From: a virus
DNA: 64,000 nucleotides
Virus record (IMG/VR): IMGVR_UViG_3300040786_000062
Reading direction: 5' to 3' (one strand)
This document shows, in pieces, positions 1,532 through 59,642 of the stretch (position 1 is the stretch's first letter; each line of letters begins with the position of its first letter). The notes under the pieces are model-generated. The model was not told the DNA's origin. It worked only from the letters and a program-made list of their open reading frames with translations, and did not search any database. A program made the translations under genes and the position numbers.

Positions 1532-1901
1532 ATGAGATACTTAAAAAATTTAATGAGAATGTAGAAGATACTAATGTATATGATTTTCCATCAAGAGGTA
1601 TTAAAATTAAGACTACTAAAGCAATAATGTCTTTATGATTAAGAATATCAATGATGTGTCAGAACATGGAAATATAGGTTTATTTTCTATTGCATCATAT
1701 GATTCACAATTTACACTGAAACATTATTATAACTTACCATTATTACCTTTTGATTTACCTTTAGATGAACATGGAAAATGGGTGAGTCAAAAGTGGGAAG
1801 AATTTTGTGAATTAAATAAAATAAAAACTAATAAAAAACAACCAAAATGGACTATGTATACTTCTGTTCAGAAAGCAACAGTCTTTCCAAAGAAGTTGTG
1901 A
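1532..1901 (+). CDS. Hypothetical protein with capsid-targeting-like N-terminus (MRYLKKFNEN)
   Basis: ATG at 1532, one A missing in a run, joins ORF 1635..1901. Confidence 0.6.
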
Positions 1902-1998
1902 GTTAAAGATTTTGCATTGGTTAAAAAAAAAATGAAGAATAAAAAATATAAAGTTCGATTTGATACTGATATTCTAAAATAAAAATAAAGTAAGTAAA

Positions 1999-2330
1999 AT
2001 GATTAAAAAATGGGCAGAATTTATTAAAGAAGATTTAGACTTAGATAACAAAAGTTATTTAGATTCTAGAATGCAAGAAATTAAAGATATGCTAGTAGGT
2101 ATAGCAGATGGACAGACGCTGATATAAGAGTGGGAAAATAAGAACGATCATGAGTTGTCAATTAGTTTCACTACTGATTCTCTTTCTATAGTATGAATTT
2201 GATATAGATGATTTAACAGTGTCTAAAATAGTTGGAGATACCGTTGACTTTACCAGTGATGTTGATTCAGTAGATAAAGGAATAGAGGTAATAAAGAATG
2301 ATATACACTCTATATTAGGAATAGAAGAAA
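1999..2330 (+). CDS. Hypothetical protein with capsid-targeting-like N-terminus (MIKKWAEFIKE)
   Basis: Direct translation from the ATG at 1999; continues into ORF 2219..2407 through indels. Confidence 0.6.
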
Positions 2331-2676
2331 ATAATATTTTGAATCTAAATATGAAGAACTCGTTTCAATTACTATTGAAGGTGGTTATATTAAGAATAAG
2401 TTTATAAACTTAGAGGTAAACAGGAAACTAATGAAAGTTTTGGATAGTAGATTTGGTTTAAATTTTGGTGAAATTTCCGAAAAAAAATAAGATAGATATA
2501 TCAAAAGTTTCTGAAATATCAAACTTCTTAACTTCAATAGGATTGAGAAAAAAATGAAACTAATATAGGTGATAGAAATAAATTAACATTTAATGGTATA
2601 TTAAGTCTTAAAGAGATAAAGAAACTTAAATAATTGAAAGTTTAATTAATTCCTTTTATTTTATTAATTATTATTA

Positions 2677-2684
2677 TATATTTG
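2677..2684 (+). promoter_or_regulatory. Bacteroidota-type -7 promoter box TATATTTG
   Basis: Matches TAnnTTTG; an ATG follows at 2701. Confidence 0.55.
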
Positions 2685-3563
2685 TATAAATTGTGTAAAT
2701 ATGAAATATAGTGTTGAATTTGATAAAAATATAGATAAGAATGAAAATACTGGATTAGTATATGAATTAGCATTATTTTTTAAAAATTTTTAAAAATAAT
2801 GAAATTTAAAAAGTACTGAGTTTATTAGTGTAATATCAAAAGAAGTGATTATAATAAAATTGTTACACTCTGTAATAAAAATCTCAGGTGATGTATTAAT
2901 GGGTATATTGCTAAATTATGATATAACACATATATATAAAGTAGAATTAACCACACAGAATGATAACGTGGGTCCTAGTGATATAGTTATTAATGATATT
3001 TTCGGTTTATCAATTAAATATAACACAAAATGTAATTTTAATCCAACTGGAAGGAATTTTCTTAAAGAAAGTGACATAATTGAGTATAAAGAATCACTTC
3101 CAAAATTTTCTTAGATTATAATAAAGAGAAAATCCACTTAGGTCTAGAAAAACAAAATCAGAATCTTTAAATATTATTATCAATAAATTAAAAGAAAAGG
3201 TTGTTAATAACTGGAATGATAATATTTAACAGAAAGTGAAAAAAATAGACATAGCCGCTAAGTTATATCACATGAATTCACCTATCAACTATATCATCAT
3301 TAGAATAAATAATAAGGGTGTTCTATTTGTTGATGAGACAACTTTTAACTTTGATATTAAAAATATAAAACTATCAAACTTGAATAACTCACATTATATT
3401 TTATTCTATTGTAATGAAAAAATGATAGGTAAAATGCAGGTAAAATTTAATAATGGTGTACTTGAAGGTATAAAGGTAAAGGAACACCAGACTTTATAAT
3501 TGATGGTATAGAAGTAAAGAGGGTAATGTTATAACGTCCTGGAATTTTAGTATATCATAAAAT

Positions 3564-3598
3564 AATAATGAAACCCACTAATTGTGGGTTTCATTATT
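3564..3598. terminator. Bidirectional intrinsic terminator
   Basis: Perfect 15-bp stem aataatgaaacccac-taatt-gtgggtttcattatt between convergent genes. Confidence 0.8.
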
Positions 3599-5796: not shown

Positions 5797-5800
5797 TGAG

Positions 5801-5844: not shown

Positions 5845-6507
5845 AAAAATTTTATGATATTTTGCTTACCATTTGTTCTAAATACTGATATATATATTTA
5901 TGATATCGCTTCAGTGTATCACGGTTGATTGAATTTCTTATATCCACGTATAATGGCACTTTGTGTAAAATTTAATTAATTTGGTGGAGATAACTGTTTA
6001 CTAGTTTTGTTATTATCGTATAATTCTTGTGCAATTGAATAACTAAATGCCATTACTTCATCCTTATTTGAATAGTATGACTGTTTGTCATTTGGATTTG
6101 GTAGTGTGTATTCGATAGTCCTTTTGAATCTTGTTTACTGTGAATGAACTCGTGACGTAATATATTACTTATCTCGTTGCTGATAGATATTAGGTGTTTG
6201 GTGTTTATTGTGTGACCTATATTGATGACTAATCAGGGCTTCTTATTTATAGGATTTAGTAGAGCAAAGACCATTTCTCCTTGGCTTGGTGCTTCTTTTC
6301 TTGCTTCGTCTGATGGTAATTCATTATAAAATGTTTTATAATCAACAATATCAAACCCATATTTATTTGCAATTTTATTTATATCTTCATAAGATATAAA
6401 TTTGGTATCAACATCTTTCACATCATTAATAAAGATGTCGTGTCAATTTCATCATGTGGTATTATTATAGCCTCATTGAATTTGGAAAACTTTAATATTC
6501 TTTTCAT
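5845..6507 (-). CDS. HExxH zinc-metallopeptidase-like protein with capsid-targeting-like N-terminus
   Basis: Starts MKRILKFSKFNE; contains ILRHEFIHSKQ followed by YYSNKDEVMAF (candidate third zinc ligand Glu). Confidence 0.65.
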
Positions 6508-6538
6508 ATTATATATATAAAATTACTTTTTATTAATT

Positions 6539-7569: not shown

Positions 7570-8084
7570 TATTGTTTAATATATTTAGTGTAATAATCTA
7601 AATCATCCCTCTTTCCATTTGAGATATATCAGAACATTCCGCCTGCATCATCTAAATGGTTTAAAACTTTTATTCTAATCTCTTTATCGTTACCAACTTT
7701 ATCAAATATTGATAAAATCATCTTCATGTCTCACCATGTCATATACATCGCTACTAATGGCACCTTTATCATATAATTCATCTAAATAATCAATAGCAAT
7801 TGACTCATTGAAAGAATTCTCTGATAGACTCTCTGTATTAAGTCCTTTTAAGAATCATATACTTCTTCAACATCATCTTTGGCGGTTGAAATATGATCAG
7901 AGGCCCAGTCATGAGAATCTAGTATTGAATCAAGTTCAGACTCATCCATTTTAACATCAGATCTACTAATCTTTTAATAGTCTTCAAATTGGAAAGAACA
8001 TATAATTTTGTTCTTTTTGTTCTTTAATACTTACTAGTTTTTTGCTTCGTTAAGTTATAATCTTGGAATTTTTAAGTTTTTCAT
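7570..8084 (-). CDS. Acidic hypothetical protein with capsid-targeting-like N-terminus (MKNLKKFQDYNLNE after indel repair)
   Basis: Manual translation; TAATATATA element upstream. Confidence 0.55.
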
Positions 8085-13448: not shown

Positions 13449-13520
13449 TTTTAATTATGCTTAAATATTCAAATATAACTTTTACTTTTAATATATACTT
13501 TATTAAAATATAAAATAGAT

Positions 13521-16355: not shown

Positions 16356-16368
16356 AATAAAATACATA

Positions 16369-17105
16369 ATGATACAAAAATATTTTGAATTCGTAAAATC
16401 TGACTTGGATCCAATTAAGTCATTCTATATAAAGGATGAACTTAATCCAAAAGTATGGGAAGGTTTTGATATAAATGAAAATGTAAGAGAAGCTTTGCTT
16501 AAAATAGCAGAAGACTTTTATGGCTCTACTGAGTTAAATGCTGTTATAAAGATGTTATATTAACTGGCTCACTTGCAAATTATAACTGGTCGGAAAAGTA
16601 TTCTGATTATGACTTGCATATACTTGTTAATTTTGAAGATATTAATGAGGATATAGTATTAGTTAAAAATGTAGATGGTGCAAAAAACAATTGGAACAAA
16701 GAACATGATATCTTAATAAAAGGATGAAGTTGAAGTTTATATACAAGATGTTACTGAAACTCACAAAGCAAGTGGTATGTTCTCTTTTGAAGAATAGATG
16801 GATAACCAAACCTAGAAAAGTAGAATTCGAACCTGACGAGGAAGCAATTGAAGAAAAGGCAAAGTCTGTAATGATGGCAATTGATGATTTAGAGAAAGAG
16901 TTGGATGAAGATAAGTATGAAAAGTATAAAGAGAAAGTTGGTAAGGTCTGGGATAAAATAAAATTACAGAAAAAGCGGACTTGAAGAAGAAGGAGGTGAA
17001 TTCTCTATTGGTAATTTAGTATTTAAACTTTTACGAAGAAATAATTATATTAAAAGATAATGGACTTAAAAGAAGTGCATATGATAAACAATTTGATGTT
17101 GTATA
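16369..17105 (+). CDS. Pol-beta superfamily nucleotidyltransferase with capsid-targeting-like N-terminus
   Basis: After frameshift repair: MIQKYFEFVKS...DVILTGSLANYNWSEKYSDYDLHIL...EVEVYIQD...GGEFSIGNLVFKLLRR, giving the hGS-x(n)-DhDh motif plus a third acidic residue. Confidence 0.8.
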
Positions 17106-17120
17106 AAATAATAAATTGAA

Positions 17121-17819: not shown

Positions 17820-18440
17820 ATGAAACATTTAACTAAGTTTGTTAATTATATAATAGAATCAAAGGGTATAATATCTAATGAGGATTTTGATGCATTGATA
17901 ATACCTTTTCTCATATGGGTATTTCTGTTAATGTCCAAGATGATAAAACTTCAACTGTAGATGAATTTAAAGGTAGAAAATATAAAACGATATATTTTGG
18001 ACTTTCTAAAATTAAAGAAAATAATGGATTCTGGTGGTTCTCAAAACTATATATCCGATGATAAAATATGGGAATTTTTTGATGAATTATTGAATCTAAG
18101 GAATCACTTGGGTACCAAAGTTTTGATTAATTTTGGTAGAAGTACACATGGTGGTTGGTATTGTAATATTTCATATTTAGTAGGAGAAGATATTGAATCA
18201 GGTGACCAGTTTGAGTTACTTAGAGTTTATGATCAATTAAAGAAAAGCAAGGTACTGCCAGGACAGATTTTAACTATGGGATGGTGAGTAAGCTATCAGG
18301 TGATGAAATTTTAATCACTGTTAGTTATGATTTTACAAGAAGAAAGTGGAATCTATTTGTGAGAGAAATAGATTTATCTAATTTTGATGTTAATATTATA
18401 GAAAACGGATCTTCTGCTGAAATTAAAATTAAACACAAAT
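17820..18440 (+). CDS. Hypothetical protein, paralog 1 of tandem triplet (MKHLTKFVNYIIES)
   Basis: Contains DDKIWEFFDELLNL, shared with the next two genes. Confidence 0.6.
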
Positions 18441-19068
18441 GAGATATTTAAATAAATTCGTAGAGTATATAAAAAAGCAATGGAAGAAAACTTGACTTAG
18501 ATTTAGTTGAGAATGAGTATTTGGTCCCTATAAAACAACTTGGAGTTGAGGCAGATACTTATATAAGTGTTATAACAACAGGTGAGTTTTCTGGTTATCA
18601 ACTTGTTAACATAAGGCTTAATACATCAGGATTTAATAAAGTAGATAATGATGATAGAAGTCCATTATGACAAAAGAATTTGGGAATTTTAGATGAGTTG
18701 CTTATGTTTAAAATGTAGTTGATAGTTTTGGTGGTAATGAGGTTTCATTGGCACTAAGATATGATAGAGTAGATATAAACATTTATGTTAAAATAGAGGA
18801 AGATGCTAAGTATTTAACAGAGAAGTTATTAATGGAATTGGGTAAAGAACGTAGTCCAAAAATACAACTCGATTATGATTTGGATATTCCTATTATAAAG
18901 GCTTATGTAAATGGCAGTTTAATAGTTTTAATAACTTTGTGAGAAAAATTGAAGCCGATTTATCGAAATTTGATATAGAGGTTATTCAGTTGAATGAAAA
19001 ACCTTATTAACATAGCACGTTATTGGGAAGCAAAAACCTTATTAACATAACACCTAAAAACAATAAGT
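18439..19068 (+). CDS. Hypothetical protein, paralog 2 of tandem triplet (MRYLNKFVEYIKES)
   Basis: LDLDLVENEYLVPIKQLGV...DKRIWEFLDELLMFK. Confidence 0.6.
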
Positions 19069-19070
19069 AA

Positions 19071-19700
19071 ATGATACATCTAACTAAATTTACAGAGTAT
19101 ATAAAAGAAAGTAATGGAAAAGAACTAGACTTGGATTTAATTGAGAATGAGTATTTAGTACCTATAAAACAACTTGGAGTTAAAATAAATATACATAAAA
19201 AAAATGTTAACTAGGGAGACTTTGCTGGAAATAATGAAATAAGTATAAATTTTGATTTTAGTCATTTTGTTAGAGTAAATGGTGATGGAAATAGTGATGG
19301 AAATACTAATGATAAAAGAATTTGGGAATTAATGGATGAGTTGATTATGTTTAAAAAATGTTATTGAATACTATTTTTTAATAATATATCAATATGGCTG
19401 GGTCCGACAACAATAGATATTTCTATGTATACAAAATTAGAAGAGAATGATGAATATTTTATTAAAAAACTACTTGTAGAATTAAAAAGATCTTATAGCA
19501 GAAAAATACAAATTATCAGTTCTGATAATAGTATAAAAGCATATATATATGGAACTAAGAGACTTTGGGATAACTTTATAAGAAAATGAAGTTGATTTAT
19601 CAAAATTTGATACAGAGGTTATACCGTTGGATGATAAAAACAAAAATAACCGTTATTGGCAAGCAAAACCCTTATTAACATAACACATAAAAAACAATAA
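19071..19700 (+). CDS. Hypothetical protein, paralog 3 of tandem triplet (MIHLTKFTEYIKES)
   Basis: LDLDLIENEYLVPIKQLGV...DKRIWELMDELIMFK; its 3' end is similar at the DNA level to paralog 2. Confidence 0.6.
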
Positions 19701-19736
19701 TAATATTTAATATATATTATTAAAATAAAAGTTATC

Positions 19737-24688: not shown

Positions 24689-25045
24689 TTAATTTATTAT
24701 TACATTTTTATATCTAAATGCTTTTAGTGATATTTTTATATTTATCAATAACACCATTGAAGAATTTAGTTTATTACTTGTCATCTCACCATGCCAATAT
24801 TCGTCTGGTATTCTAGGTACATCCTTTCCTCTTGCACTTACCTCAACACCATTTATCTTACCATTCATAAAACCAACAGACCATGTGGTCTTCGTCAACT
24901 TCTCTATATAACCATTTGCGAATATTATCCCCCCATCCTGTTGATCCATCAACATATATATTTACCAATATTAGAATCTTTACTAAGAAGATCACTTCTA
25001 AATGGTAAATCGTTATTATTTCGTTAAAATTTTTAAATGTTTCAT
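24689..25045 (-). CDS. Hypothetical protein with capsid-targeting-like N-terminus (MKHLKxFNEN)
   Basis: ATG at 25045 joins ORF 24689..24955 after one indel. Confidence 0.55.
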
Positions 25046-25089: not shown

Positions 25090-25442
25090 TATATAAAGAG
25101 TCACTATTTATATAATCGTTTAATGAGTATAATTGTCCTACTTTTGCTATTATCACTAGGTAATTTTACTTTATAATATATTCTTTTACTTTAAAGTATA
25201 CTTTGAAGTATTCTACTAATGTCATCAGATATTCATCAACATCAGTTAATTTAAATGCTTCTTCTCGTTTAACGTGTGTTGTTACTATTTTATATTTTAA
25301 ATAGAAATATCCCAATACCCATCATTATATACTATATCAAATTCAAATCCCTTGTCTTTTAATTCGATAAGAATACCCTCGATATCCTCTTTATATTTAT
25401 CTATGTTTACACTTTCGTTAAACTTTTTTTTAAATGTTTCAT
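25090..25442 (-). CDS. Hypothetical protein with capsid-targeting-like N-terminus (MKHLKKFNES)
   Basis: Manual translation MKHLKKFNESVNIDKYKEDIEGILIELKDKGFEF. Confidence 0.55.
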
Positions 25443-26781: not shown

Positions 26782-27299
26782 TTACAAAAACGGTTTATTA
26801 AAGTGTATATTTTCCTTTGCAAAGTCTTCATAGTCTTCTTCGGAAATATAAAATAAAAACTCTAATATAGTCTCACCTCTCATATTTTCATACATATCAA
26901 AATCCGATAAATATTCTGAGAATATATCAATTTGTATTGATTGTATAGACTGAAATATGGTAACCACATCAACCAATCTTTCTTTAGGGGTTAGTTTAGA
27001 TGTAATGGTAACATCATACCCTCTATTACTTACGGTGAAGTCTCTAACCCTTTTTCTTTAAGTTTACCTCTCAATACATACAAAGGTGCTCCATCTCCTC
27101 ATCTACGGCTAGTTCATCATCGCTTTTATCTCGATTATACTTATAGTCGTCTTCATTATATTCAGGAGTATCAAAATCATCATCCTCATAGGAGTTATCA
27201 TATTTACTATCATCATCTTTATCCCAAGATGAATTCCATACCATTCCTTGACCTGATTGGTCTACCGCCTCTAAAAAAATTTTTATATTTTTTTATCAT
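26782..27299 (-). CDS. Acidic hypothetical protein with capsid-targeting-like N-terminus (MIKNIKIFLE)
   Basis: D/E/Y-rich N-terminal half joins ORF 26782..26976. Confidence 0.5.
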
Positions 27300-28649: not shown

Positions 28650-29036
28650 TTAAATTATAACTTCATTTGTATTTTTATAATCTACACTTACCTGACCATC
28701 ATTATGATCCTTTTGTTTTTACAAACTTTCTCTTGCAATAAATAACAGTTATGTTATTTAATGACTTTGCCTTACTATTCTTTTAGTGAGCTCGGCAACT
28801 TTTCTTATTATTTCTGGTGTTGGTAAATTATCTCTAACCACTATAACAGAGTGAGATCCAGGAAATCCCTTCACATGCATCCAAATATCATCACTATCAG
28901 CAATGTTAAATGTTAAATGGTCGTTTGATTTGGCATCTCTACCTATATAAACTATAAATCCATCTATATCTAATGTTCTAATATCAGGAAATTTATCTTT
29001 ACCTTCATTAAATGATTTAAAATTCTTTACTTTCAT
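28650..29036 (-). CDS. Stand-alone NFACT-R (DUF814) RNA-binding domain protein
   Basis: IYIGRDAKSNDHLT...DDIWMHVKGFPGSHSVI...A.L...SK...V.Y...V.K...G.V; N-terminus MKVKNFKSFNE. Confidence 0.85.
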
Positions 29037-29123: not shown

Positions 29124-30773
29124 TTAGTTTAAGTATTGATCATCAGTTACTTGATAGTCATAAATTGTTTTGTGGAAACCATCCCACTTCAGCAACAGCA
29201 TATCTTGATCTAAGTAACATTCTTGGTGCAAAAGTTGCTTCAGAAATAATACTGATAGATTGTGCCATCAAGTAAGGTACGAAGATGATACCTGGTTGGT
29301 CTGGATTATTCTTTCTACCCAAAACAACTCTGTTATCATTATACTTCATGTAAGGATCGATATAGATTGAAATATCTCCAATTGAACCTACTGGGTATAA
29401 TTGTCCTTGTCCATTCATTTTAGATCTTAGCGGGTTAATTGTGTAACCAGCGATATCTTGAAGTGCAGCACCAAGACCACCGTTTGTAATTAAATACTGT
29501 GCTGGTCCAACACGTCCTTCTGTTGCGATATAGTTAGATGCGTGAGCAATCTTAGTTATCAATTTACGTTGAACAGCGTGAGTTGTTTCTCCACCTAATG
29601 TTCCATTTGCATATGATGTATCTAAATCGAAGATAGTTTGAAGAGTCAAACCTGATCCAGATCTAACTGGTGCTCCTGTTGTTCTGTTCAATTCACCCAT
29701 TTCGAAGATTTTAGCAACGATTTGCTTAGAAATTGTTTGAGACAATTCGTTAACAAGGATTGATTCCATCTTTTGAACGATATCCATACCTGTGTTTGCT
29801 TTTAATGTCTTCAATTTCAGTTCTTCTTAGAGCTGAAGATACTTCAATAGTACCAACTGCAATAGTCTTAGTTGAGATTTTCGGTCCGATAACACCAGAA
29901 TAAGTTTTATCATCTTGTTCTCTACTCATTGGATAATCACCTGAACTTAAGTTAGATGTCCAGTTTGCTGAGAAACCTGGCAATTGTCTTCTAATGCTGA
30001 AATCAATTCAATTGTTGAATCTGATGCACCAACTGTTCCGATCCAAAGAATTTGAAGAACCATTGAATTCGTAGCAGCAAATGTGTTTTTAGTAACATCA
30101 AAAGAAACTGATATTGACCAGCAGTGTTTGCTTGTCTGTATGTTCTGAACATTGGTAAACCATCTACTCTTGAGAATCCTAAAATTCAAGAACTCCTTCT
30201 TTACTAACTGGTTCAGCATTCAATAACAATGAAGCTGATGCTCGATGCTTTTAACGAATATTCTACCACCTTGTAAACCACCTTGTGTTTGTGATACCTG
30301 ATGTAGCTGCAAAATGCAGTTAATGATGCATTGATAGCAGCACCTTTTGTTGCGTTGTTCAATTTGAAAACTTGTGGTCTTGCATCTTCAGTGTCAAGGT
30401 CATCATATTGAAAATCAATATAAAGTAAATCTACTTTTGGACCTGGTGTTGGCTTAACAGCAACTAAATCCAAACCAATTGTTTGAGCAGCAATTTTCAT
30501 AGCTACTGGTAAAGGTTTTGTCCGATATCACCTGAACCAACTCCGTTTGCATAGTTACCTAAAGTTTGTCCTGCTAATCCTGAAGGTTGTGCAGCAACAA
30601 CTGCTCCCATACCTGCAACGTTACTTGCGTTAACATATGCGTTCTCATTAATTGAGTGAAATTCTGCATACTCTGACATCCAAGTAAGTTTGTCTTCTCC
30701 TACAACTCCCATGTTTTCCAAAACAGGAGACCATTTTTCATGGCTTTTGATTATCTATTCTAATCTGTGACAT
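29124..30773 (-). CDS. Major capsid protein (T4 gp23-like), frameshifted
   Basis: KKWSPVLE N-terminus; AAQTIGLDLVAVKPTPGP; IEDIKANTGMD...ILVNELSQTISKQI; GRVGPAQYLITNG; GSIGDISIYIDPY; YLMAQ...FAPRMLLRSRYA. Confidence 0.92.
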
Positions 30774-30852: not shown

Positions 30853-32899
30853 TTATAGATTAAATGTTTTAAATCTCTCCATAATAGCAGTCATATCGCC
30901 ATCTGATAACTTATCTTCTTGTATCAAACTTTGAGAAACTAATTTTCTAGATGTAGATTCAGTTTTAATGTTTCTAGTAGACCAAAATGATCAACTTGAT
31001 TTTCAGTTACTAATACTTCTTCTGGATATAATCTAGCTTGAGATAAGATAGATTTTTTAGAAGACTCATTTAACTGACCCCAGATTGGCTTCATGTTTTC
31101 AGGCATCAATCTGATTACTCTCTCTTCAAGAGTTTCATTCTTAGTAGAAAGTGATTCTGCTATCAAAGTTAGAACGTCTTTTGCTGTAAAATAACTACTT
31201 TCGCTTATGTGTAGTTTGACATCATCTTGTTCTTCTCCTGATAGAGAGTAATAACTATCTACTTGTGATTTATTTAAGAATTTCAAGAAATTCAAATCAC
31301 TGCTTTCAGAAACTTTACGTTTTTAGCTTCTGCTATTAATTTATTTATAGAATCTGAAAGTTGTGAATCACTTTCTCCATAATATTCTTCTTCACCTTCT
31401 TCATTTTCAGGTAAGTATTCTTTTGCTCATCTTCATCTTCTTCTGTTGAACAGTCAGCACCTACATAACCTGGCTGCATTTTATAATCTTCTTTGTTTTC
31501 AGGAATTTCATTCTCTTCATCTTGTTCAAATCCTGCGTCCATTAATGATGGAAATCTTTCTTCTTCACCAAATCCTTCATTTAATTTGTTTCCGTTTAAT
31601 CTTTCAACTATCATTCCTTGGTAGTTAATAGATTTATCAAGGCTTTCTGCTAAATATTCAGAATATCCGATGTTATCATCTAAATGTTCTGCGATATATT
31701 CAGAGTATGCAATATTACCTTCAACGCTTTCTGCTAAATACTCAGAATAAGCAATTGAGTTATCGACATTTTCTGCTAAGTATTCAGAGTATGAAATGTT
31801 TTATCAAGACTTTCTGCGATATACTCAGAATATTCAATGTTTTATCAAGGCTTTCTGCGATATACTCAGTATAAGAAATGTGTTTATCAACACTTTCAGC
31901 CAAATACTCAGAATATTCGATATTCTTATCAACATTCTCAGCTAAGTACTCAGAGTATCCGATGTTTTATCAAGACTTTCTGCTAAGTACTCAGAGTAGT
32001 TAATTGCCTTTCTAAATTTTCCGCTAAATAGTCATTATGCTTTGCTAATTTGCCTGTTGTTTCTTTTAAAGATTTGTTTTCAGTTACAATTATTTGAATT
32101 TTTCTGCTAAATAATCTAAATACTTACCAACTTGAGTGTTGCTGCTATTTAATTCTTCGTAGTATGCTAATAATTCGTCTAATTTCTTGGACTCATATCT
32201 CCTTTAGAGATTGCTTTTAACTTCTTTTGAGTTGTTGCAATTTCGTTTACCAAATAATGTGAGTAATCACTTAATTGTTTTTTGTTACAAATTCATTTTT
32301 GTTCATGTTGAATAGTTCGTTAATTTTGACTCATCGGACATTTCATAAATCCTAAAGTTGTTTTGTTCTATCTTACCGTCTTCACAATAACCCAAAGACT
32401 CATTTAAAACTTTTATGCTCATTTTGCAGATGCAAACCCAGGATCAGCAACAATATCATATGTGAATAATTTCTTTAATGATACTGAACCATCAGATTCT
32501 GTAATACCTGCTGCTCTTGATGATACGAAAATAGGACAACCATCATCGATAAGTGCCTTAGATTCTTTACCCCAATAGGTACTTAGTAATTTTATCTCTC
32601 CTGCAACTAGGTTCTTTTCAGAAACAAATTCTGCTTTTGTGATAATGTGAGATGCACGTGATAACGAAGTATCAAATACATCCGGGTGATCAAACTCACC
32701 ATAAACAGCACCTAGGCTGGTCATTCTTTCATTTAATTCTTCTAAGGCCGGTAAGAATTTGGTGCATTATAAATTCGCTCATTACGATTTTAACACCAAA
32801 CTCTGTAAACGTACCATTAAGAATATAATCTTTGCTGTTACCAACAGATTCTCTTATAAGAGAATCTGTTGAATTTTCTACGATTAAAACTGGTTTCAT
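30853..32899 (-). CDS. Prohead protease (gp21-like) fused or translationally coupled to a scaffold/core protein (gp22-like)
   Basis: GTFTEFGVKNRNERIY...VYGEFDHP...SHII...GCPIFVSSRAAG...TYDIVADPGF, followed by a coiled-coil, a repeat region and an acidic segment; lies directly upstream of the capsid gene. Confidence 0.88.
31630..32045 (-). repeat. Ten tandem 42-nt units encoding Y(S/T)EY(L/I)AE(S/N)(L/V)DKNI-type 14-aa repeats
   Basis: On the + strand, ta(c/t)tcag(a/t)(a/g)ta recurs every 41-42 nt from about 31655 to 31990, with one degenerate unit (HNDYLAEN). Confidence 0.92.
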
Positions 32900-36482: not shown

Positions 36483-38235
36483 TTAAAATTCAAACTCTCC
36501 ACCACCTTCTTGTGCTGCTGGTGGCTCAGGAGTCTCCGTGCTTGTGCACCTCCTTGTGCTTGTGCTCCTGCTTGTGCTCCTCAAGTTCAGGAGATTCTCC
36601 TGGCTCACCACCGAAGTCACCTCCACCTCCTCCGAAGTCATCACCGCCTCCACCACCGAATCCGCCGCCTCCACCGCCAGCACCTTCACCTGCCTCACCA
36701 CTAGCATCCTCAGCAGCAGAATTGGTATCCTTCAACCAATATCTTTCATTTTCTGCTTTTTCTTCTGGAATAATTTAAATACATTATCCATAATCCATTC
36801 AATATGAAAATAAGGCTTCTCACCATTCATAACTCCTAATAAAGTACCAACTATTGAAGACTTTTTTCTAAATTATTTATTTTCTTCCACTCTTCAAATA
36901 CTTGATTAGAAAGAAGGTAATATCGACCCCATTTATAAAACTCATCATCTTTTAATTCAGAATTCAATTAACATTTGTAATTTAATAGGCTTAACAATTA
37001 ACTCTTTAAAATTTGCTCTTAGTCTACTGATGAAGTTGTGAAACTTTATCTCATCTCTTGTCATTCTGCCGCATCAGTAACTAAGTTACCTCCACCGTTT
37101 TCTCCTTCAAATCTACTTATAGGAATTTTAGATGCTCTTTTAATGCTTTTATAAAACCAATCTAACATTGAGTCATCATTTAAGTTATGACCCTGTGGTG
37201 ACATAAGTTCCATATTAGGCGTACCACCGTCTCCCTAGGAAACCATATTTGTTTATTATATGCTAAGTGCTTAGTTCCATTTATAGACAATGTTCTAATG
37301 AATCATCCCATTCAACTTCTTCGGAATAATCATGAATCAATTGACCTATCTGTTCTTCGGCTCTTTGTCTAGACATACCCTTAATTGGTATGGTAAACTT
37401 TTGATATACCGTAGCATTGATAATATTAAACATTATTCTTGTTTGTTGAAGAATTTTTAATTGATTATATGGTTTTATCAATCCTTCAACATAAGATGTT
37501 TCTGAATATTCATTCTGAGTAGAATATGATACATAAACTATTTGTGAATCTAGAAATATTCTACGAAGCATTGGATCTTCAGGAATTGTATCCATAAATG
37601 TCCAATATTTTGCTCATATGCAGGAACTAATGTCTCAGGTCGTAATCTATTGAAACCTATAATATTTTTCTTCTTATCATCATATATAATCTCGTTTGCT
37701 ACATAACCATCAACTAGAAAGTCTTTCATCATGTTCCAAGTGGTTATACTGTCAGAAAATCCATACTTATTATATACTTTTCGAAATACTCTTGAAATTT
37801 ATCATGTACTTCTTGTATTTATTAGGCAATGCTTTTGGTGTACAAAAATCACTATCATCATTATAAACAATACACTCATCTGCAATAGTTGATACGAAAT
37901 CTCTTATCTCATCTTTAATAGAGTATTCTCTTAATATTCTACGTTTGTCACCATATGCTTTATCCAAATATGGAATAGATTTTCTGTTTAAAATCGATGC
38001 AACAGCGCGCTGCGAAAGAAGTCGTACATCGAATTACCCTTAGCAGCATAGGGATCCTCGTTTATACCAATACCCACTTGATTTCTAACTATCATATCAT
38101 CATAATTCATACCATATGATGATAAACTCTTAATATTCTACTGAATAATCCTTTATTCTCTACTGCCGAATTTGTATAAGAGAAATTTGAACTATTTTCG
38201 CTATTCTCAGAGTTATAATTATTATATGATGCCAT
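36483..38235 (-). CDS. Portal protein (T4 gp20-like) with Gly/Glu-rich C-terminal tail
   Basis: DEIRDFVSTIADECIVY, FLVDGYVANEII, SYVEGLIKPYNQLKIL...RIMFNI, QIGQLIHDY, WFP...GGTPNME, LKRASKIP.SRF, RDEIKF..FISRLRANFK; located in the head module. Confidence 0.92.
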
Positions 38236-40744: not shown

Positions 40745-41037
40745 TAATTAAATGGAATTTTGTGTAATGAATATAATTTTTCTACCATATTTCTATCCTC
40801 TGCTGACATAGAGCCTGTTCTACTACTTCTATCTCTAATATCTTTGATTTTTTTATGAAATCATTTAGAAAGTCTAAATGTACCGGCTCGTCATCATCCC
40901 ATCGATTAGATGGATTCCTAAGTTACTGATGCTAACCTCTGAGTATGTCGGATAAATATTTGTATAGTTTGGCGGTCTTCCGTCTCCATATCCACTTCCT
41001 TGGAAAATGATTCTTCAAATTTTTTAATATGTTTCAT
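40745..41037 (-). CDS. Hypothetical protein with capsid-targeting-like N-terminus (MKHIKKFEES)
   Basis: Manual translation; TAATATATA lies 7 nt upstream. Confidence 0.55.
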
Positions 41038-41051
41038 AGTTTATATATTAA

Positions 41052-44420: not shown

Positions 44421-44838
44421 TTTATTTTAATATCTATTAGTATCTTATTTTATTGTAGTTTCTGTACTAATTTTATCTTTATTAGATTATTTACCGGAAA
44501 TTTTATATAACTTTGTTTATGAGAACTTGTAATTTTACTTTATCAATTTCGACTAAGTGGTTAATCTTAATCCTATAATATTATATTTACTATTCAGAAT
44601 AGTTAGAAATGGTATAAAATCATCGTTTATTTGACTCCACTTATACCAACTAAAAAAGACTTTTTTGTACAAATTTATTTTAAAGCGTGTCTCATATATC
44701 CATTGTTATCATAGAATATTCTGATATTTCGAAATCAAAACCAGTATCAATTAGATAGGCTAAGTTATTATCACAAAATTCTTGTAGTTCTTTTTGAATA
44801 GGATGAACATTGGATTCAAAATATTTTAAGTATCTCAT
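44420..44838 (-). CDS. Hypothetical protein, NLAYLIDxG family, with capsid-targeting-like N-terminus (MRYLKYFES)
   Basis: In-frame start MRYLKYFESNVHPIQKELQEFCDNNLAYLIDTGFDF. Confidence 0.6.
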
Positions 44839-44873
44839 AGATGTATATATAAAAATTAATATATAATATCATG
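44836..44873. promoter_or_regulatory. 32-bp bidirectional late-type promoter cassette, copy 1
   Basis: CAT-agatgtatatataaaaattaatatataatatc-ATG between divergent starts. Confidence 0.6.
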
Positions 44874-45624: not shown

Positions 45625-46566
45625 GTATTTTATAATTTTATTATAAAATGCAATATCTACCAAGTAATAGTCTTTACATTTAAATGTTATTTCTTGATTC
45701 GCTATATCTTCTAGACCACCTTCTTGATATCTAGATACAATACTCTTTATTTCATCTTCACCATCTTCTTTAATATTATAAATATAGTCATCTAATTCAA
45801 TACCAGGTTTCCAGTAAAGAGTTTTTTTATATTAGCACTTGACATATTCTTTAATTCATCATTATCTAATTTTGCTTCTTCGCTAATATGTGATATCACT
45901 ACCATAACAAACACCATCGTAACACCACTCACCTTCTTTACTTTCACCGAATATCCTTTCCCAATTATAACTCAAATCATCATAATTTCTATAATACCAA
46001 TCTTTTCCCTCTACATGAGAATACAAATCATCTATGTCATAACTCAATGGTATTTATATTTTCCTTTAGGAAGAATATATAGGGTTTACCGTAATCACTA
46101 GCAACGTTTACACTCTTTGATGTAAACACACCAACCACTCTTAACTTTATTCCAAACTTTTCTAAAAGTAATCATTAAATATATCGGAGATGTCAGTACT
46201 TGTGTCTTTGGGTATCCTATCGGTATTAGAAGATTTTTGCCAAATTCCATTATCCATCATCCGCAGCACTACTACCTCTGAACAATAATTCAATATCTTT
46301 GAAAGAACTTATTTCTGATAAAAATCACTACAATCTCTCTCTAAAATTTCAATTATATTTTCAAAATCAACATCAACTCCATTGTCATTATCCCTTATCT
46401 TTGTATAGAAATCTACATTCTCTGAAAATGAAACAGATCGACCGTTTACTCTATTGGACCAAAAGTATCATCACTTGACCATTTTTAATTGGTGCTTGTA
46501 TAAACGATAAAGCCTCATTCGTAATTTCTTTTGAATTATAACTTTTGAATTTTTTAAATATCTCAT
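45625..46566 (-). CDS. Hypothetical protein with capsid-targeting-like N-terminus (MRYLKKFKSY...TNE)
   Basis: Manual translation across indels. Confidence 0.5.
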
Positions 46567-46601
46567 AGATGTATATATAAATTTTAATATATACATCTAT
46601 G
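46564..46601. promoter_or_regulatory. 32-bp bidirectional late-type promoter cassette, copy 2 (perfect 15-bp inverted arms)
   Basis: catagatgtatatat-aaatttta-atatatacatctatg; the arms include both start codons. Confidence 0.7.
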
Positions 46602-47341: not shown

Positions 47342-47947
47342 TTATTTTATAGGACAAAATGTTGCGCTGTATATATACTTAGGATTTCTCTTAATATTTA
47401 CACCCATTGATAAACCACAAACTTCAATATCTAATAAACACTCATCAGAACTACCACCACATATTATAACCTCTTTACCCTTTAATGTCTTAAACAAATC
47501 GTATAATTTCTTACTCATGGTTGCCATTTATGATTCTATATAAACTATTATAGTACCCTCTGATGTAGGAAAGAAGTCACCTCTTTTAATATTCCAGAAT
47601 CCTCTTTTTCTTTATCTCTTTATATACATTAACATCTAATATATTCTTGTAAAGTCTGCATTAACATCGTAGTTGTATCTCTTTTCGATAAGGTCTACTT
47701 GATTATTGAATTTATATAAATCATCCTTATTTTCTATATCTGGATTATTATCATATAGGTAGTCCTTGTCTGGGTTTTACCATCAACATGATTATCAAAT
47801 ACTTGATAAACTTTATTATAACTTAGGCAATATTTATTTAATTCTGATAGGTAATTTTTCGTAAAATTCATTAAAACTCTTTTGAACATCTATTATTATT
47901 AATATATTATTCTTTCTGAAGTTTTCAAATATTTTTATGTGTTTCAT
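47342..47947 (-). CDS. Isochorismatase/nicotinamidase-like cysteine hydrolase with capsid-targeting-like N-terminus
   Basis: MKHIKIFENF, then LIIIDVQKSF (Asp), VFDNH (metal site), IEKRY (Lys) and IICGGSSDECL (Cys); the D-K-C triad appears intact. Confidence 0.75.
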
Positions 47948-47949: not shown

Positions 47950-49427
47950 TTTTATAATATGTTTTTAATAATTCTATTAATTGTCTCTATTTCAGATTTC
48001 AGAATATTACTATCTATTGAGTCAATTACCTCGGTAAAGACATTATAATTTCTATCGGCTTCAAATGCTTGTATTCTACCAAAATACCTATTTAGTTCTT
48101 TAAAAAGTTTTACGTCTATTTGTATTAAGTAATTGTCTAATAAAGTTTACTTCTTCTAAGACAATTTCGAAGTCATCTAGTGTTTCTACTTTATAACTTG
48201 AAATGTGTTTATAGATAGTATCCGATAATTCATTTAATAACTCAAAACCACTCTGTGCTCACTACTTATATTCTTATCAATAAATCTAATTGTGTCGTTA
48301 ATATAAATATTAGAATCTGCGTTTTGTTTTATGGTATCGGATATTGTGTCGTTTATCGAATTAACCAGATAAGATACAGTTTTACTCCTTGTATCAATAG
48401 AATATTCCTCAGAATGTTCTTTATTTACTGTTCTAAAATATCAAACATTTTAGATGATATTATCTCTAGGTTATAAAGTGATTCGGTCCTATCTTTGGGA
48501 TGTATAAAATAAAGCATATTTCTTCCTCCTAGAATTCTAGTTATCATTTTCCCAGTGCTTTTAAATCATCGAGGTTGCCACTAATACTACTACTTTCGAA
48601 ATCTTATCAACATACCTTCCGATATTCTCGCCTCTTATAACTTCGTCGCTTTTTAGTGCCAAACTACCTTTTAGCATCTCTTCTATCTTTTTTATAATGG
48701 TAGAATTAACTTCACTCTTTTTAACTTTTAATATCTAATATTAACGAAAATGTGCAGAATTTATTGATTTTCTCACATCTCCATTTGAGGGAAAAACTAT
48801 TATCATAGCGGATAGTAACACGTTATGTGAATATGGATCTTCTTCTTGTTCTTCTTTTTGTTAGGTATCAAAATATATGCATCATCAAAATTAAAATCTG
48901 AAAGTGCCCATGATTTTTTAGATATTAACTTCCAATCATCACCATAAGGCTGAGAACCTTTTTTTCTGTCTTGTATTAGATACTTAGTACCCTGTTCAAT
49001 ATATATCTGTCCTACGACTGTATCACCCTCAATATCCATACGAGTATAGTTCCTCCTTCTATATCTTCAAAGTCTACTCTGGATAACTTTTCCCTAATGT
49101 ATAAGAACTAGGATTAGTGTCTAAGACCCACCTCTTTTAATTCCATCAACTCCGGTCATTTCTAAGTAATTACCATTCACATCAAACCAAAACTTAATAA
49201 GGCTAATTTCACCTATATTTTGATCAATAGCCTTTTTATTTAATGCCTTTTGAAAGGAAGGTATTCAAATAAATCATCTGATAATTTTGAGTATGGAAGT
49301 CGATTGTATTACAAACTAATTTTAGAGTATTTATAAACTTGTCTTTATTTTTTATATAACTAATGACACCTGAAACCTTACTAGAATCAAATGCTTCGAA
49401 TAACTTAATATATTTTAAACTTATCAT
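47950..49427 (-). CDS. Hypothetical protein(s), starting MISLKYIKLFEAF
   Basis: ORF fragments 49236..49427 and 48803..49039 plus manual joins; the number of genes is uncertain. Confidence 0.45.
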
Positions 49428-49429: not shown

Positions 49430-51093
49430 AACTGGACCAACTATTTCTATCTTCAACCCTTTTGATTTAAGTGAGTTGATATACTTCTTGGAATCTTTAT
49501 CTACTAAATCTCCCGATATTATAAACTTTTTAATATTATCATTTTTTACAATTTTAATAAATTCATCCATAGAGTCTAATGTATATAATATTTCTAATAC
49601 TTCTAAATTTTTGAATATAGAAAGTCTATATCTCCTATTACATCACAACTCAAAATTTGTAACTTTTGATATCAGGATTATAATCATTAATCTCTTTAAT
49701 TACAGAAGCGTCAAATTTACATTTATCAAGCGAAATAGAACTACTTTTATTCTATTGAAATATTTGAGTGTTCTAATATCAATAAACCTAAACTTCAACC
49801 AATCTAGTTTTAAATTTAAATCTAGAAATGATTCTGGTACATCAATAGTCTCTATAATTACTTCTGATAAATTTACATCAGGTGATATTATAACTTTACT
49901 CCAGTCATATATTCTACTAAGATATAACTTTTAGTATTTTTACCAATGTTTATGGCAGTTTAGAATGAAGTCTATCATGATACGGACTATCTAAATTATC
50001 ATCAGGATCTATATCAGGTGCATATACATAGGTATCAGAATCAAAAGTTTGTTTATTTCCACTATACTTAACAATCATCTCATCTATAACATTCTTCATT
50101 CTATCAGGATATGCCCTATCAAAGAAAACTTTAATAGAACCATCTTGCGTATCTATATTTCTTATTATAGTTCTTGATAACGGCAATTGATCAGAAATCT
50201 TCTCATCTTTCCAGAAAATAGGAGTATCAAACAACAAAATGCAGGTATACTATTTGGATCAAAACATTACCAAGTAGTTGTGAATTATGTGAACCTGAGT
50301 ATAAATGTTGACATGAAGAATAAAACTTACTAATAGACATATTTAAAATATCTTTAGGATTATGTGAAATTGATAGATAAATGTCTCTATTAAATATTTC
50401 AAAATCTAACTCATATTCCCTATTAGCATTATCACTTGCAAAGTTTATAAAATCTTGTAGTCTATGAAATGTATTAGAATTTATCTTATCACTAACTTCA
50501 TATCCTTCTATATCTTGTTCAATGAACTTAGTTATTAGATTATTATAATCACTCAAAACGAATTTATGTTTATCAAGTTATTACTAAATACCAAATCCCC
50601 TTTACTTTACTAACCCTTATTAGATTGTTTTCGCTATCTCTAAGAGGTTGCCCAGCATCATTCTTTGATATTATACTATCAGCAATACTATCAGCAATTG
50701 ATAATTTTCTAAATACACTTTCGTATAAAACCACAATTTGGTCTAATGATGGTGATTGTATATCAAATGAAGATAATATTTTAGAAAACTTATCAACTAA
50801 GATAGATGTATCTATCGATTTATTTAAAATATGTATAAACGGCTTTGGAAGTGTCGTAAACAAATCTAAAAGTTCTTTAATATCACAATTGCTGAAAGCT
50901 CCTAATGCTTTGTATTTATCCTCTTCGGATAATTTCCACTTACCTTGTATTATCTTATTAGTTGGGGTCACCTCATCATAGTCTAAGTACTTTTCTCCCC
51001 ATCTTTCCGAAACTTGAATAGCCTGTTTCGAAGTATAACATCTCTTATTTTTGCTTCTTTTATAAAGAAGTCTCTTGTTCTTATATACTTCAT
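49430..51093 (-). CDS. Large hypothetical protein (MKYIRTRDFFIKE...SISHNPKDILNMSISKFYSSCQHLYSG...FFDRAYP)
   Basis: ORFs 50573..50971, 50227..50556 and 49950..50237 chain across frameshifts. Confidence 0.6.
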
Positions 51094-53949: not shown

Positions 53950-53989
53950 TCTACAAATATACGAAATAATTTTTTATTATATATAGTTA

Positions 53990-54310
53990 ATGAAACATTT
54001 AGTTAAATTTAATGAGAGTATTGAAAGTAGTGAATGGAATGATGTTGATGTAGAATATTTTAAAAATTGTTTTATTGATTTCGACAAAGGAGCGACTATA
54101 AGACCAATTTTTATGGAGAATATAAAGCAGGCTATTGTCAAATTGAAATAGAGGGTCTGTTATCAAATAAATTAGTATAGAATATTTTATAAAATTAACA
54201 GACGAAATGTCAGAAATGTATAAAGATTAAAGTATTCTAAAAGTTAAACAAACTAAAGTAGGCAGATCAACAATAAGAAACTAATGAAGATGATGATGAT
54301 TATACCTTAG
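53990..54310 (+). CDS. Hypothetical protein with capsid-targeting-like N-terminus (MKHLVKFNES)
   Basis: In-frame start; TATATA upstream. Confidence 0.55.
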
Positions 54311-56689: not shown

Positions 56690-57906
56690 ATATATTATTT
56701 TTAAATTCGTTATTTATTTCACTTTCAAATATAGAATTTACAACATCTCTATATTTACGAGGAAAACAATACTATCATGTACAGTTATTATTTTAATTTC
56801 AGGATATATATTCATTATTTTTTTATTATAGTATTGAATATAAGGTTTGACTCGGCTTTCTGTAGATCATATGCAAGTACTGGTAGTCACCTTTTTTTCT
56901 TTATACAACTTAATGAAATTATGTATTGTCGGGAACAATGAAACAAATACTTTATCAGCCTTACTATTTTTTCATATTTCTACCAAATAGAACTTTATAC
57001 GTAAGTTCTTTTATTACTTTTTATCACTCTCTTTAATTCCTTCATTATATATTGATAATAATTTCCACTTACCGTAAGTTCCGTAAATAGTTTTAATTCA
57101 TCTTCTTTAACCCAGCTACTTTAGACTCTGATAGTAACTTTGCTAGAAATAATGGCTGTGAGTTCATAATATCTATTTCAGGGTTTCTTCACCATCTATT
57201 AAAAGGCAATTTTTCTTATAAAGGATTTTAGTATTGTGTAATTAGTATGTAATCTACCATAATTATCAAGTGATAAAATATATGTTGATTATTTATACAC
57301 TCAACTGAATAAATATTTCTGTTATAGATATCATAATCTTGATACTTCAAAGAGTCAAGAAAAAATATTGCACGATCAAAGTCTATTTTAACACTAAATA
57401 AGTCAGTAACTAATTTAGCTCTAATATCTTCTTCAATTAGATTTTTTATCAGATGTTTCACCAATGTGTATACTATCTATAAACTTCTTTTTATACTTTT
57501 TTAAGAGTACTTTATCAAAGTTTTTATATCGTTTTATATCACTTTAAATATTTCATTATTAAGAGTATATACTCTGGATGAGATACCTTTTGGTGGTTTG
57601 ATACTAGTTTAATAATATCCTTATCAACTAAATACAATATAGTAGTTATATAGGTATCCGTATTTATCTTTCAATATTGTTGCATTTAGCGCAAACCTGT
57701 TATCTTTCTTGAAATAATATTTTAGAATTAGATTGTGTGTTATGTCAATTATATATCAGTTTTAACTTAGTATTATTAAATTGAAGTGTTTTTATAGTAG
57801 ATATATCATATAAACATTTTGGTAAAATTGAAGAGTGGATTTTTTATTATCTAGTCGTTTAGCCAAGTGGAACTAGATTCTTTCGTAATTGTGTTTTAAT
57901 ATACAT
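56690..57906 (-). CDS. Small family-A / T7-RNAP-related (TV-Pol-like) polymerase-palm protein
   Basis: DNYGRLHTNYT, motif A EIDIMNSQP, motif B K..IKELTYKVLFG, LQKAES, motif C ITVHDSI; about 400 aa with no exonuclease domain. Confidence 0.7.
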
Positions 57907-57959
57907 AGATTTTATACTAAAAACAAGTATGTTTAGGATAATTGATTTTTATTCATATA

Positions 57960-57983
57960 AAAATCCTCAATACTGAGGATTTT
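57960..57983 (-). terminator. Intrinsic terminator
   Basis: aaaatcctca-atac-tgaggatttt. Confidence 0.75.
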
Positions 57984-57989
57984 CTATCT

Positions 57990-59319
57990 ATGTGTTTCAT
58001 ATTTTTTATTTTTTTTATCAAAAGATTCGATAGGAAATTTTACCACCTTTTTCACCTTTTTTCTTTTATCATCAACTCCTTTTTCAAACTCTGAATAAAC
58101 ATCAGGATAAACTTCACCATCACCATCTACATCATATTTAATATCAAAGAAGTCACCAAATCTAACAAACCTGCTCTATTTAATTCTACTTCATGCATTC
58201 TTTTAAATAGAAACTTATATGGTTATCAATTTCATCTACAAATTTATTAAATAAAACTACAGTATTTTCAGTAAATATTCCAATCGGTTTTTTTCTTTTT
58301 TTGATAAAGATCCTAATACAACTTTAAATATATACTCTATCTTATCACTATCGTTAATATACTCTCTGGTTAGTTTATTTTTATAAGATCCGTGTTTATC
58401 TTAAATTTATCTTTATCAAAAAAACTCAGGAACAACAAAGTCAAAATCTAATAGATCTGCTTTAACTTCTGAAATATATATGTTAAATAGTTTACATATA
58501 AGGTAGATATAAATCTCATCTTTTCTATCGCCTTTAACTTAATATCTTTTAAGTTAATTGATTGGCTGAAATTTAAAAATTAACTAATATTAGTGTATAT
58601 ATCTCAACAAATTCGGTATTATTATCATCACTTAACCTCTTATATAATGGATTCAATAGTTCGAAAGAAGAATCTTTAACTCCACTTCTTATTATTAACT
58701 TCTCTATATTTTTCTGAAAGTCATTATTCATTAGAAATGAATTTTGTGAAAGAGGATTCAATAACTTATAAAAGAAAAAGTAAATGACTTCTCTCCAAAA
58801 ATATACTCTAAGTCTTCTTCACTTGTATTAATAAAATATTTAATTGCTTCTACCATTTTATCAGTTAACACACCTCTATAAACTACTGGTAATGAATCTA
58901 CATCAAATAGTCAGAATATTCATCAATCTCTTCAAGTAGAAATGTATATTTACCTGATTTATTTATTGAAGTTAGTACTAAACCATTTTTAGGCATTCTA
59001 GCATATTCAATGTTGGCGGGTTTTGGTCTGCAAAATATTCAAAACAAAACCACCACTTTTTTATTCAAAAGACTTTTTACTCTATCATCTAATGATTCGA
59101 AATAACTAATTGCTGGATTATAATAGTTCTGCATAGCCAAATCGACCATATTTATTACCTCACTTGATACAGATTTAGGTTTTATACTGAATTTTCGCCA
59201 TTCCAGTTAACCCATATCTTAGAACCTTGTACATCCTCGAATACAATTATCTCTTCACTAAATATGCTATCTAATAGCTCATCATTGTTTAAACCATTTA
59301 AGGTTGTTAGTTTGCTCAT
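57990..59319 (-). CDS. RNA-ligase-fold-like protein lacking the motif-I lysine (tentative)
   Basis: IVFEDVQGSKIWV where Rnl2-type ligases have E-K-x-(D/H)-G-(S/T); FCFEYF (motif III-like); LPVVYRG. Confidence 0.4.
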
Positions 59320-59357
59320 AACTTGATTTATGTTTTTATCAACTTATATATTGAATA

Positions 59358-59642
59358 TTAGTTTTTCTGTAAAAAAAATAATATTTCTTCTATATTCTCT
59401 TTATTAAATCCTTCTGGTAAAGGACTGCCTCCTGATTTTAAATAATCTCCATATAATTGAACATATTCATCTTCGGTATATATCCGATTACCTAACTCAC
59501 TATAAATAACATTAGTGTCTGAATTATTTATTGTTTTATTTTGAAGACCAGTCTCACCGTATGCAGGACCCATAGGACCTACAAGTTCTGTTCCGCTAAT
59601 TTCTTCATTTATAAAACTTATAAATCCTTTTATATGTATCAT
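59358..59642 (-). CDS. Small acidic protein with capsid-targeting-like N-terminus (MIHIKGFISFINE)
   Basis: Intact 94-aa ORF. Confidence 0.65.
   Translation of the reverse strand: MIHIKGFISFINEEISGTELVGPMGPAYGETGLQNKTINNSDTNVIYSELGNRIYTEDEYVQLYGDYLKSGGSPLPEGFNKENIEEILFFLQKN

Follow-up and report, generated by a model that had tools for sequence, protein, structure and literature searches.

The internal proteins of phage T4 begin with the capsid-targeting sequence (CTS) MKTYQEFIAE, which is sufficient for packaging and is removed by a single gp21 cut, and about 1,000 internal protein molecules are present per head (PMC8442874, PMC3012670). Amber suppression of the internal protein IPIII assigned targeting mainly to residues 4 and 7 (Tyr4 and Phe7) and processing to residues 8 and 10 (PMC9026906). 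The present analysis concerns a 64,000-nucleotide stretch of viral DNA, IMG/VR record IMGVR_UViG_3300040786_000062 (called the window), in which about 20 genes, roughly one in five, begin with a short CTS-like peptide, called the tag. The tag exists, is found only at the N-terminus, is selected as a peptide, and occurs on unrelated, fast-evolving proteins of a phage that also has late-type promoters and a head module like that of T4.

It is important to compare the tag with the CTS of T4. Both are N-terminal peptides of about ten residues with a Met-Lys start, hydrophobic or aromatic residues at positions 4 and 7 and a hydrophobic-x-Glu end; the T4 CTS may reach 19 residues at the extreme N-terminus, and the tag falls within this length. 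Both are carried by otherwise unrelated, fast-evolving proteins of phages with a head module of the Gp23/Gp20/gp21 type. The sequences differ, being MKT[YF][QK]EF in T4 and MK[HY]LKx[FY].. here, and so do the numbers: T4 has 3-4 tagged genes, the window about 20, and the related phage LR756502 at least 106 in its genome. In addition, the T4 internal proteins are basic, whereas the bodies are mostly acidic here, the protease is fused to the scaffold here, and the CTS role of the tag is proposed from sequence.

Two further systems are similar in part. The phiKZ-like giants (SPN3US, phiKZ, 201phi2-1; PMC5694885, PMC10052503) also load many proteins into the head, and a related protease removes their targeting propeptides after Glu. 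However, these propeptides have 80-130 residues and no common short consensus, they occur on about 8-20 proteins, and the lineage is unrelated to the Bacteroidota-type T4-like megaphages. The cargo-loading peptides of encapsulins are short terminal peptides that suffice to load unrelated cargo into an HK97-fold shell, but their usual position is the C-terminus, and they attach to the shell protein itself and remain uncleaved, with neither a scaffold nor a protease step.

The literature searched contained no earlier description of the tag and none of huge phages with large sets of CTS-tagged genes. Nevertheless, a preliminary description of the window went too far in calling this an undescribed system, as the proposed mechanism is the one established for the T4 CTS, whose use for loading varied proteins has already been suggested in reviews of T4. 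The novelty lies in the scale, in the lineage-specific sequence and in a test system, the cultured phage PAU, and not in the type of system, which is known.

Tagged starts in the window

The preliminary description listed 20 tagged starts, and all 20 were located at the positions and strands reported there:

1532..1563, plus strand: tag MRYLKKFNE; one A must be added in an A-run; matrix score 16.3
1999..2031, plus strand: variant tag MIKKWAEFIKE; the ortholog W01_132222 begins MIKKWGDFIRE
6475..6507, minus strand: variant tag MKRILKFSKFNE, behind TTTATATATA; the ortholog begins MKHLKKFNLFE
8045..8084, minus strand: variant tag MKNLKKFQDYNL; indel repair required
16369..16401, plus strand: loose tag MIQKYFEFVKS on a nucleotidyltransferase-like gene
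17820..17861, plus strand: tag MKHLTKFVNYIIE, first member of a paralog trio
18439..18477, plus strand: tag MRYLNKFVEYIK(E), second member of the trio
19071..19109, plus strand: tag MIHLTKFTEYIKE, third member of the trio
25013..25045, minus strand: tag MKHLK(I/x)FNE; indel repair
25410..25442, minus strand: tag MKHLKKFNE; indel repair in an A-run
27267..27299, minus strand: variant tag MIKNIKIFLE; indel repair; the ortholog begins MKLKKYKDIFE
28653..29036, minus strand: gene with an NFACT-R domain and variant tag MKVKNFKSFNE, behind TTTATATATA; adjoins the capsid gene
41005..41037, minus strand: tag MKHIKKFEE, behind TTAATATATA; matrix score 19.6
44806..44838, minus strand: tag MRYLKYFES, behind TTTATATATA
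46534..46566, minus strand: tag MRYLKKFKSY, behind TTTATATATA; indel repair
47345..47947, minus strand: gene with tag MKHIKIFEN; the ortholog is the tagged W01 protein MKYIKTYEN (204 aa)
49395..49427, minus strand: variant tag MISLKYIKLFE, located at the listed start
51055..51093, minus strand: variant tag MKYIRTRDFFIKE; the ortholog (575 aa) begins MKWILPRNRFINE
53990..54022, plus strand: tag MKHLVKFNES, behind TTATATATA
59604..59642, minus strand: variant tag MIHIKGFISFINE, located at the listed start

A position matrix was trained on a different genome and used with one homopolymer indel allowed. It matched 12 places in the window, of which 11 were starts already listed; each of ten shuffles gave 0-1 matches, and reversal of the sequence gave 3. 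Nine listed starts (1999, 6507, 8084, 16369, 27299, 29036, 49427, 51093 and 59642) are looser variants with one or two extra residues; for several of these the LR756502 orthologs are tagged. Altogether seven tagged genes of the window have LR756502 orthologs that are also tagged, while about 12 have no detectable homolog in LR756502 and retain the tag.

Seven starts (1532, 8084, 18439, 25045, 25442, 27299 and 46566) require the addition or removal of one base in an A/T homopolymer, a repair that had been reported for several starts. The downstream bodies, described as unrelated, are so in a frameshift-tolerant comparison, with the exception of the paralog trio 17820/18439/19071. A position behind the late-type promoter element is clear for six of the 20 (6507, 29036, 41037, 44838, 46566 and 53990), and most of the others are internal to operons. 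The suggestion that the bodies include enzymes proved weak: the NFACT-R domain (29036) is the only solid assignment and the nucleotidyltransferase (16369) is marginal. The statement that tagged genes far outnumber those of T4 was too cautious, given more than 100 such genes per genome in LR756502.

The repairs depend on the state of the assembly. The window has a G+C content of 25-35%, and its longest open reading frame (ORF) in translation table 11 has 269 codons across the whole 64 kb. Reassignment of a stop codon (TGA, TAG or TAA) was rejected as the cause of the short ORFs, as long ORFs were not recovered under any of these codes. LR756502, a 642-kb uncultured phage, is syntenic with the window at about 40-80% amino-acid identity; by comparison with it, all conserved genes of the window, including those for the major capsid, portal and protease-scaffold proteins, are broken across two or three frames. 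Short-read contigs of a public sea-ice metagenome contain 62% of the sampled window words and differ from the window by about 1 substitution and about 12 gaps per kb. The best-matching sample contigs for window positions 16308-19795 differ by about 3 substitutions and about 42 gaps in 3.5 kb.

The frame splits and the gaps thus show that the ORFs are fragmented by assembly indels, and the window is a real phage, a sea-ice/marine megaphage, in an indel-ridden assembly, not a set of pseudogenes. It follows that adding or removing a single base in an A-run is justified in principle, in agreement with the preliminary description, with short-read support for homopolymer repairs that is general, not site by site at the tags. 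A marine megaphage lineage that is sister to LR756502 and LR745206 is known from long-read data (PMC9723777), and the window is perhaps a member of it. Related sequence is also present in seawater, ice and sediment metagenomes.

The tag in the relative LR756502

The whole LR756502 record was analysed, with about 949 ORFs called. The strict pattern M-[KRIN]-[HY]-[LIVF]-[KRTNSQ] was found at 106 of the 949 ORF starts, compared with 15 of 3,848 internal Met positions. The figure of 106 is a lower bound, since the strict pattern overlooks variants such as MVKKYFEFINE and MIIKKYNDFVNEE. In its general form the tag has 11 residues, M-K-[HY]-[LI]-K-x-[FY]…hydrophobic-x-E. As a positive control, the same pipeline applied to T4 recovered IPII, IPIII, the gp24 propeptide and the MKTFKEF start of IPI. 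In T4 a 54-residue hypothetical protein, gp61.1 (NC_000866 18966-19130; its gene adjoins the primase gene), begins with the CTS-like MKTFKEFIKE, which may be compared with MKTFKEF of IPI.

Several positions outside the selection are also conserved. Residue 7 is Tyr or Phe in 92 of the 106 strict-tag proteins, although it was not a selection criterion. Residue 4 is Leu, Ile, Val or Phe by definition of the strict set, and genome-wide Leu is enriched 2.2-fold and Ile 1.9-fold at this position. A Glu is located at positions 7-14 in 99 of the 106, and at 8, 9 or 11 in 90; around this Glu, P3 is hydrophobic (Ile, Tyr, Leu or Phe) in 78 of the 99 and P1' is Ser in 41. Pairs of non-homologous tagged proteins have an identity of 0.13-0.40 at positions 7-11, which were not used in selection, and from position 12 the identity is at the background of 0.07.

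Exact MKHLKKFNE was found in 68 stretches of IMG/VR contigs. All but one of these (67 of 68) encode homologs of LR756502 proteins, and they contain 148 tagged ORFs altogether. This marks the tag as a hallmark of the megaphage lineage.

The proteins behind the tag are diverse. After removal of the first 14 residues, the 106 bodies form 90 blastp clusters. Pfam matches were found for only about 6 of 100 tagged proteins (HNH nucleases, lysozyme, SET domain), compared with 50 Pfam families among length-matched untagged LR756502 proteins, including ThyA (thymidylate synthase), ClpP, NusG and a sigma factor. Tagged genes avoid housekeeping enzymes. At 10-36 kb and 419-426 kb of LR756502, tagged genes follow one another in long tandem arrays of as many as 10, overlapping by 4 nt (ATGA), and 49 of the 106 strict-tag genes lie within the first 100 kb of the record.

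These arrays, together with small paralog clusters, might indicate that the tagged proteins are one huge paralogous family in which the first helix is part of the fold and the bodies have diverged beyond recognition; most bodies have no known domain, so that remote homology is possible. However, the similarity falls abruptly to background at residue 12 even where the paired bodies are homologous. Moreover, the domains behind the tag are clearly different (NFACT-R, DUF4314, lysozyme, HNH and SET), and the proteins range from 58 to 575 residues. A single family is improbable on this evidence and is largely excluded.

The codons of the tag were compared with those of the genome. Synonymous codons are mixed: His CAC/CAT occur 32:31, Tyr TAT/TAC 23:20, Lys-5 AAA/AAG 35:35, and four Leu codons are used. 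At the conserved positions the codon variety is equal to or higher than that genome-wide, except for Lys-2, which is AAA in 84% of cases compared with 61% genome-wide. The free variation of synonymous codons indicates selection on the peptide.

The genome-wide scan of the motif against late promoters that the preliminary description had called for was run on LR756502, and it associates the tag with the late-type element. The late-type element was scored as [AT]ATATATA and the host-type element as TAnnTTTG, only for genes with their own upstream region. The former precedes 80% of tagged and 38% of untagged genes (Fisher p=1e-7), and the latter 5% of tagged and 17% of untagged genes. The late-type element, TAATATATA, ends 4-8 nt ahead of the tagged ATG. 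An identical element with the same spacing precedes one baseplate hub gene and one tail-fibre gene of LR756502, and for the portal, capsid and protease genes the element is located further upstream. Many tagged genes have no upstream region of this kind: 62 of the 106 lie no more than 25 nt from the preceding gene, with the element nearby in only 18 of these.

In the window and throughout LR756502, many late-type genes, both tagged and untagged, have T(T/A)ATATATA ending 4-8 nt ahead of the ATG, and in a second class (portal, capsid) the element lies 18-30 nt upstream. Sites in the window include 6508-6530, 29037-29060, 41038-41060, 44839-44860, 46567-46590 and 53965-53989. Because the element ends just 4-8 nt before the ATG, the late mRNAs may be leaderless or nearly so.

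The first codons might then form the 5' end of the mRNA, and the first 30 bases could be conserved as nucleic acid, serving the promoter, leaderless initiation, a translational repressor site or cassette recombination. The preference for AAA at codon 2 would also agree with this. On the other hand, the synonymous sites of the conserved His, Tyr, Leu and Lys-5 vary at least as much as in the genome at large, most tagged genes are operon-internal and have no element, and a control with the reverse pattern gave nothing. Conservation at the nucleic-acid level is very improbable and is, like the single family, largely excluded.

The head module and related phages

Three genes of the head module were located in the window:

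30865..32899, minus strand: gp21-like (S77) prohead protease fused to scaffold, in three frames because of indel errors
29161..30770, minus strand: T4 Gp23-type major capsid protein; its candidate N-terminal propeptide ends ..FHSINE|NAYV
36712..38172, minus strand: T4 Gp20-type portal protein, with a T4-type portal match

The LR756502 head proteins match Gp23 (3.7e-28) and Portal_T4 (1.3e-57), and the window equivalents were assigned by synteny. The match of the protease to the PHROG head maturation protease is strong (6e-28). In both LR756502 and the window the scaffold contains ten 14-residue repeats, each with [LI]-A-E-[SN]; in the window these sites have a spacing of 42 nt at about 31653-32027. 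In both, INE|N is located directly before the Gp23 domain of the capsid protein. The scaffold and capsid sites belong to the same type as the one that terminates the tag.

A phage 'peptidase' family, assigned as phrog_4191 through its LR756502 ortholog, is represented by two paralogs on the minus strand of the window at 26018-26718 and 27521-28324. The pair has the capsid gene on one side and the tagged genes 25045 and 25442 on the other.

The relatives found by portal similarity are phages of 630-735 kb, LR756500, the Lak phages, cultured Bacteroidota jumbo phages and phage PAU. A de novo survey of N-termini revealed lineage-specific tags, every one ending in hydrophobic-x-Glu. The tag of LR756500, MKYIKEYEEF[IL]xE, is very close to that of T4, and that of LR756501 is MIKKFx[LI]FE. 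PAU, a Sphingomonas (Sphingobacterium) phage and a cultured relative by portal, has its own consensus, MKT[LI]xxL[YF]E[AS], on about 25 genes, a smaller set than in LR756502. Side by side, T4 MKTYQEFIAE is visibly close to MKYIKEYEEFILE of LR756500 and to MKT[LI].. of PAU and less so to the version in the window, although the peptide is too short for statistics.

In PAU the tagged genes form a block around the head genes (gp142-146, gp149-150 and gp152-154), in the order gp142-146, portal gp147, gp149-150, protease gp151, gp152-154 and capsid gp156. The scaffolding protein gp152 is itself tagged, and the tagged gp142 and gp154 were labelled 'internal capsid protein' by the depositors (GenBank JQ362498). 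A publication on the PAU tag or on the basis of these capsid labels was not found in the literature search.

A tagged scaffolding protein could also mean that the tag directs proteins into the prohead core but that most of them are accessory core or scaffold proteins, degraded and expelled like gp22, gp67 and gp68 of T4. Acidic bodies resemble scaffold proteins, not basic DNA-binding ones, and a very large capsid may require much internal filler. However, a set of 90 unrelated, fast-diverging bodies, among them a SET domain, HNH nucleases and a lysozyme, suggests effectors rather than filler, and we consider this fate of most tagged proteins distinctly unlikely.

The tag might instead be an address label for some other single partner, such as a late-protein chaperone, an adaptor of a Clp-type protease or an assembly or sorting factor, its likeness to T4 being convergent. 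The N-terminal position, portability, selection on the peptide and lineage variants would suit any dedicated reader equally. LR756502 encodes a Clp protease (ClpP), and the majority of tagged genes are distant from the head module. Prediction of a complex between the protease-scaffold and residues 1-45 of one tagged protein gave a score of 0.00, that is, no answer; it lends scaffold binding no support, yet is not evidence either way. A partner of this type is unlikely, as it leaves unexplained the hydrophobic-x-Glu common to the tags of all lineages, the scaffold repeats and the capsid propeptide, and also the tagged scaffold and the tagged neighbours of the portal and protease genes in PAU.

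Some other features of the window and its relatives were observed. Window positions 12298-14637 are rich in repeats and have a raised G+C content, with short repeat units of the Gly/Ser/Ala type; metagenome contigs connect this region in many alternative ways, skipping 59-2,271 bases. The region may represent collagen-like or fibre repeats that vary among strains. Positions 24334-24637, given as tmRNA in the preliminary description, are covered by a contig of one marine metatranscriptome library, and ARAGORN made no tmRNA call anywhere in the window. No tRNA genes were found in the window. In Lak-C1 (MK250029), about nine small ORFs at ~155-306 kb (65-125 residues, TAG read as Gln) begin MIKFK(K/E)K, which may be a Lak-specific common N-terminus without the hydrophobic-x-Glu ending.

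Proposed function of the tag

On balance we favour the proposal that the tag is a capsid-targeting propeptide of the T4 type used at a far larger scale. By means of the 11-residue peptide, late proteins would probably bind, soon after synthesis, to the scaffolding core while the prohead is being assembled, and the gp21-family serine protease would then probably remove the peptide by cutting after Glu. Sites of this kind would be cut by the same protease at ten places in the scaffold to which it is fused and at one in the capsid propeptide. Once trimmed, the bodies would remain inside the head and reach the host together with the DNA. Core binding, cleavage, retention and injection are all proposed here from sequence comparison.

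The likeness to the T4 CTS on which the preliminary description was built held in length, in residues 4 and 7, in the terminal hydrophobic-x-Glu, in the presence of a gp21-family protease and in the scaffold and capsid propeptide sites. It held as well in the late-type promoters, the avoidance of housekeeping genes, the selection at the amino-acid level and the tagged head-module genes of PAU. By analogy, residues 4 and 7 may have the same function as the residues that determine targeting in T4. For one tagged protein, modelling with AlphaFold2 from a single sequence was uninformative (mean pLDDT 56, below 50 at the N-terminus).

It is important to note the points that weigh against capsid targeting. 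The position of the Glu varies and is less fixed than in T4, and about one quarter of the strict-tag proteins have no well-placed Glu. The tagged set is very large (at least 11% of genes) and is mostly found in arrays far from the head module, and with more than 100 tagged genes per genome it is less certain that all of them encode injected cargo. The tagged bodies are mostly acidic (pI below 7 in 78%), while the T4 internal proteins are basic. The Pfam Peptidase_S77 match of the protease (4.6e-4, 20.2 bits) is under the curated cut-off of 27. The late assignment rests on two tail genes identified among ten large genes tested (PHROGs), plus head genes. A PHROG search of ten tagged PAU proteins gave no informative match, so that the 'internal capsid protein' labels were not reproduced by homology. 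In the literature searched there was no virion proteomics, N-terminomics or genetics on packaging or cleavage for tag-bearing phages, and SDS-PAGE is all that the MA9V-1 paper gives. Finally, PTm1 and MA9V-1, cultured relatives with the same head module, have no obvious tag and a comparable CTS-like tag was not found in Lak-C1, which means that the system is not universal among Bacteroidota T4-like jumbo phages.

Loading on this scale appears physically feasible. If the approximately 1,000 molecules in the 170-kb head of T4 are scaled roughly to a 640-kb head, there would be room for a few thousand molecules, or tens of copies each for at least 100 species. A stronger and more doubtful proposal, which we offer tentatively, is that megaphages of this lineage pre-load at least 100 varied, fast-evolving proteins (10-20% of their genes) by means of one decapeptide and deliver them with the DNA. 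If true, the injected proteome would exceed in diversity every documented phage example about tenfold and would serve as a first-strike kit against host defences, and all of its members could be identified from the genome sequence itself.

Should the tag function as the T4 CTS does, sequence alone would suffice to list the virion cargo of uncultivated megaphages, with about 20 proteins for the window and over 100 for a genome. The idea can be tested directly in the cultured phage PAU, and a natural, lineage-specific loading peptide would become available for engineering Bacteroidota phages. Many 'dark' genes would gain a location, the capsid interior, and a time, the first seconds of infection. 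They would constitute a large pool of candidate anti-defence proteins and would give a partial answer to the question of what very large capsids carry besides DNA.

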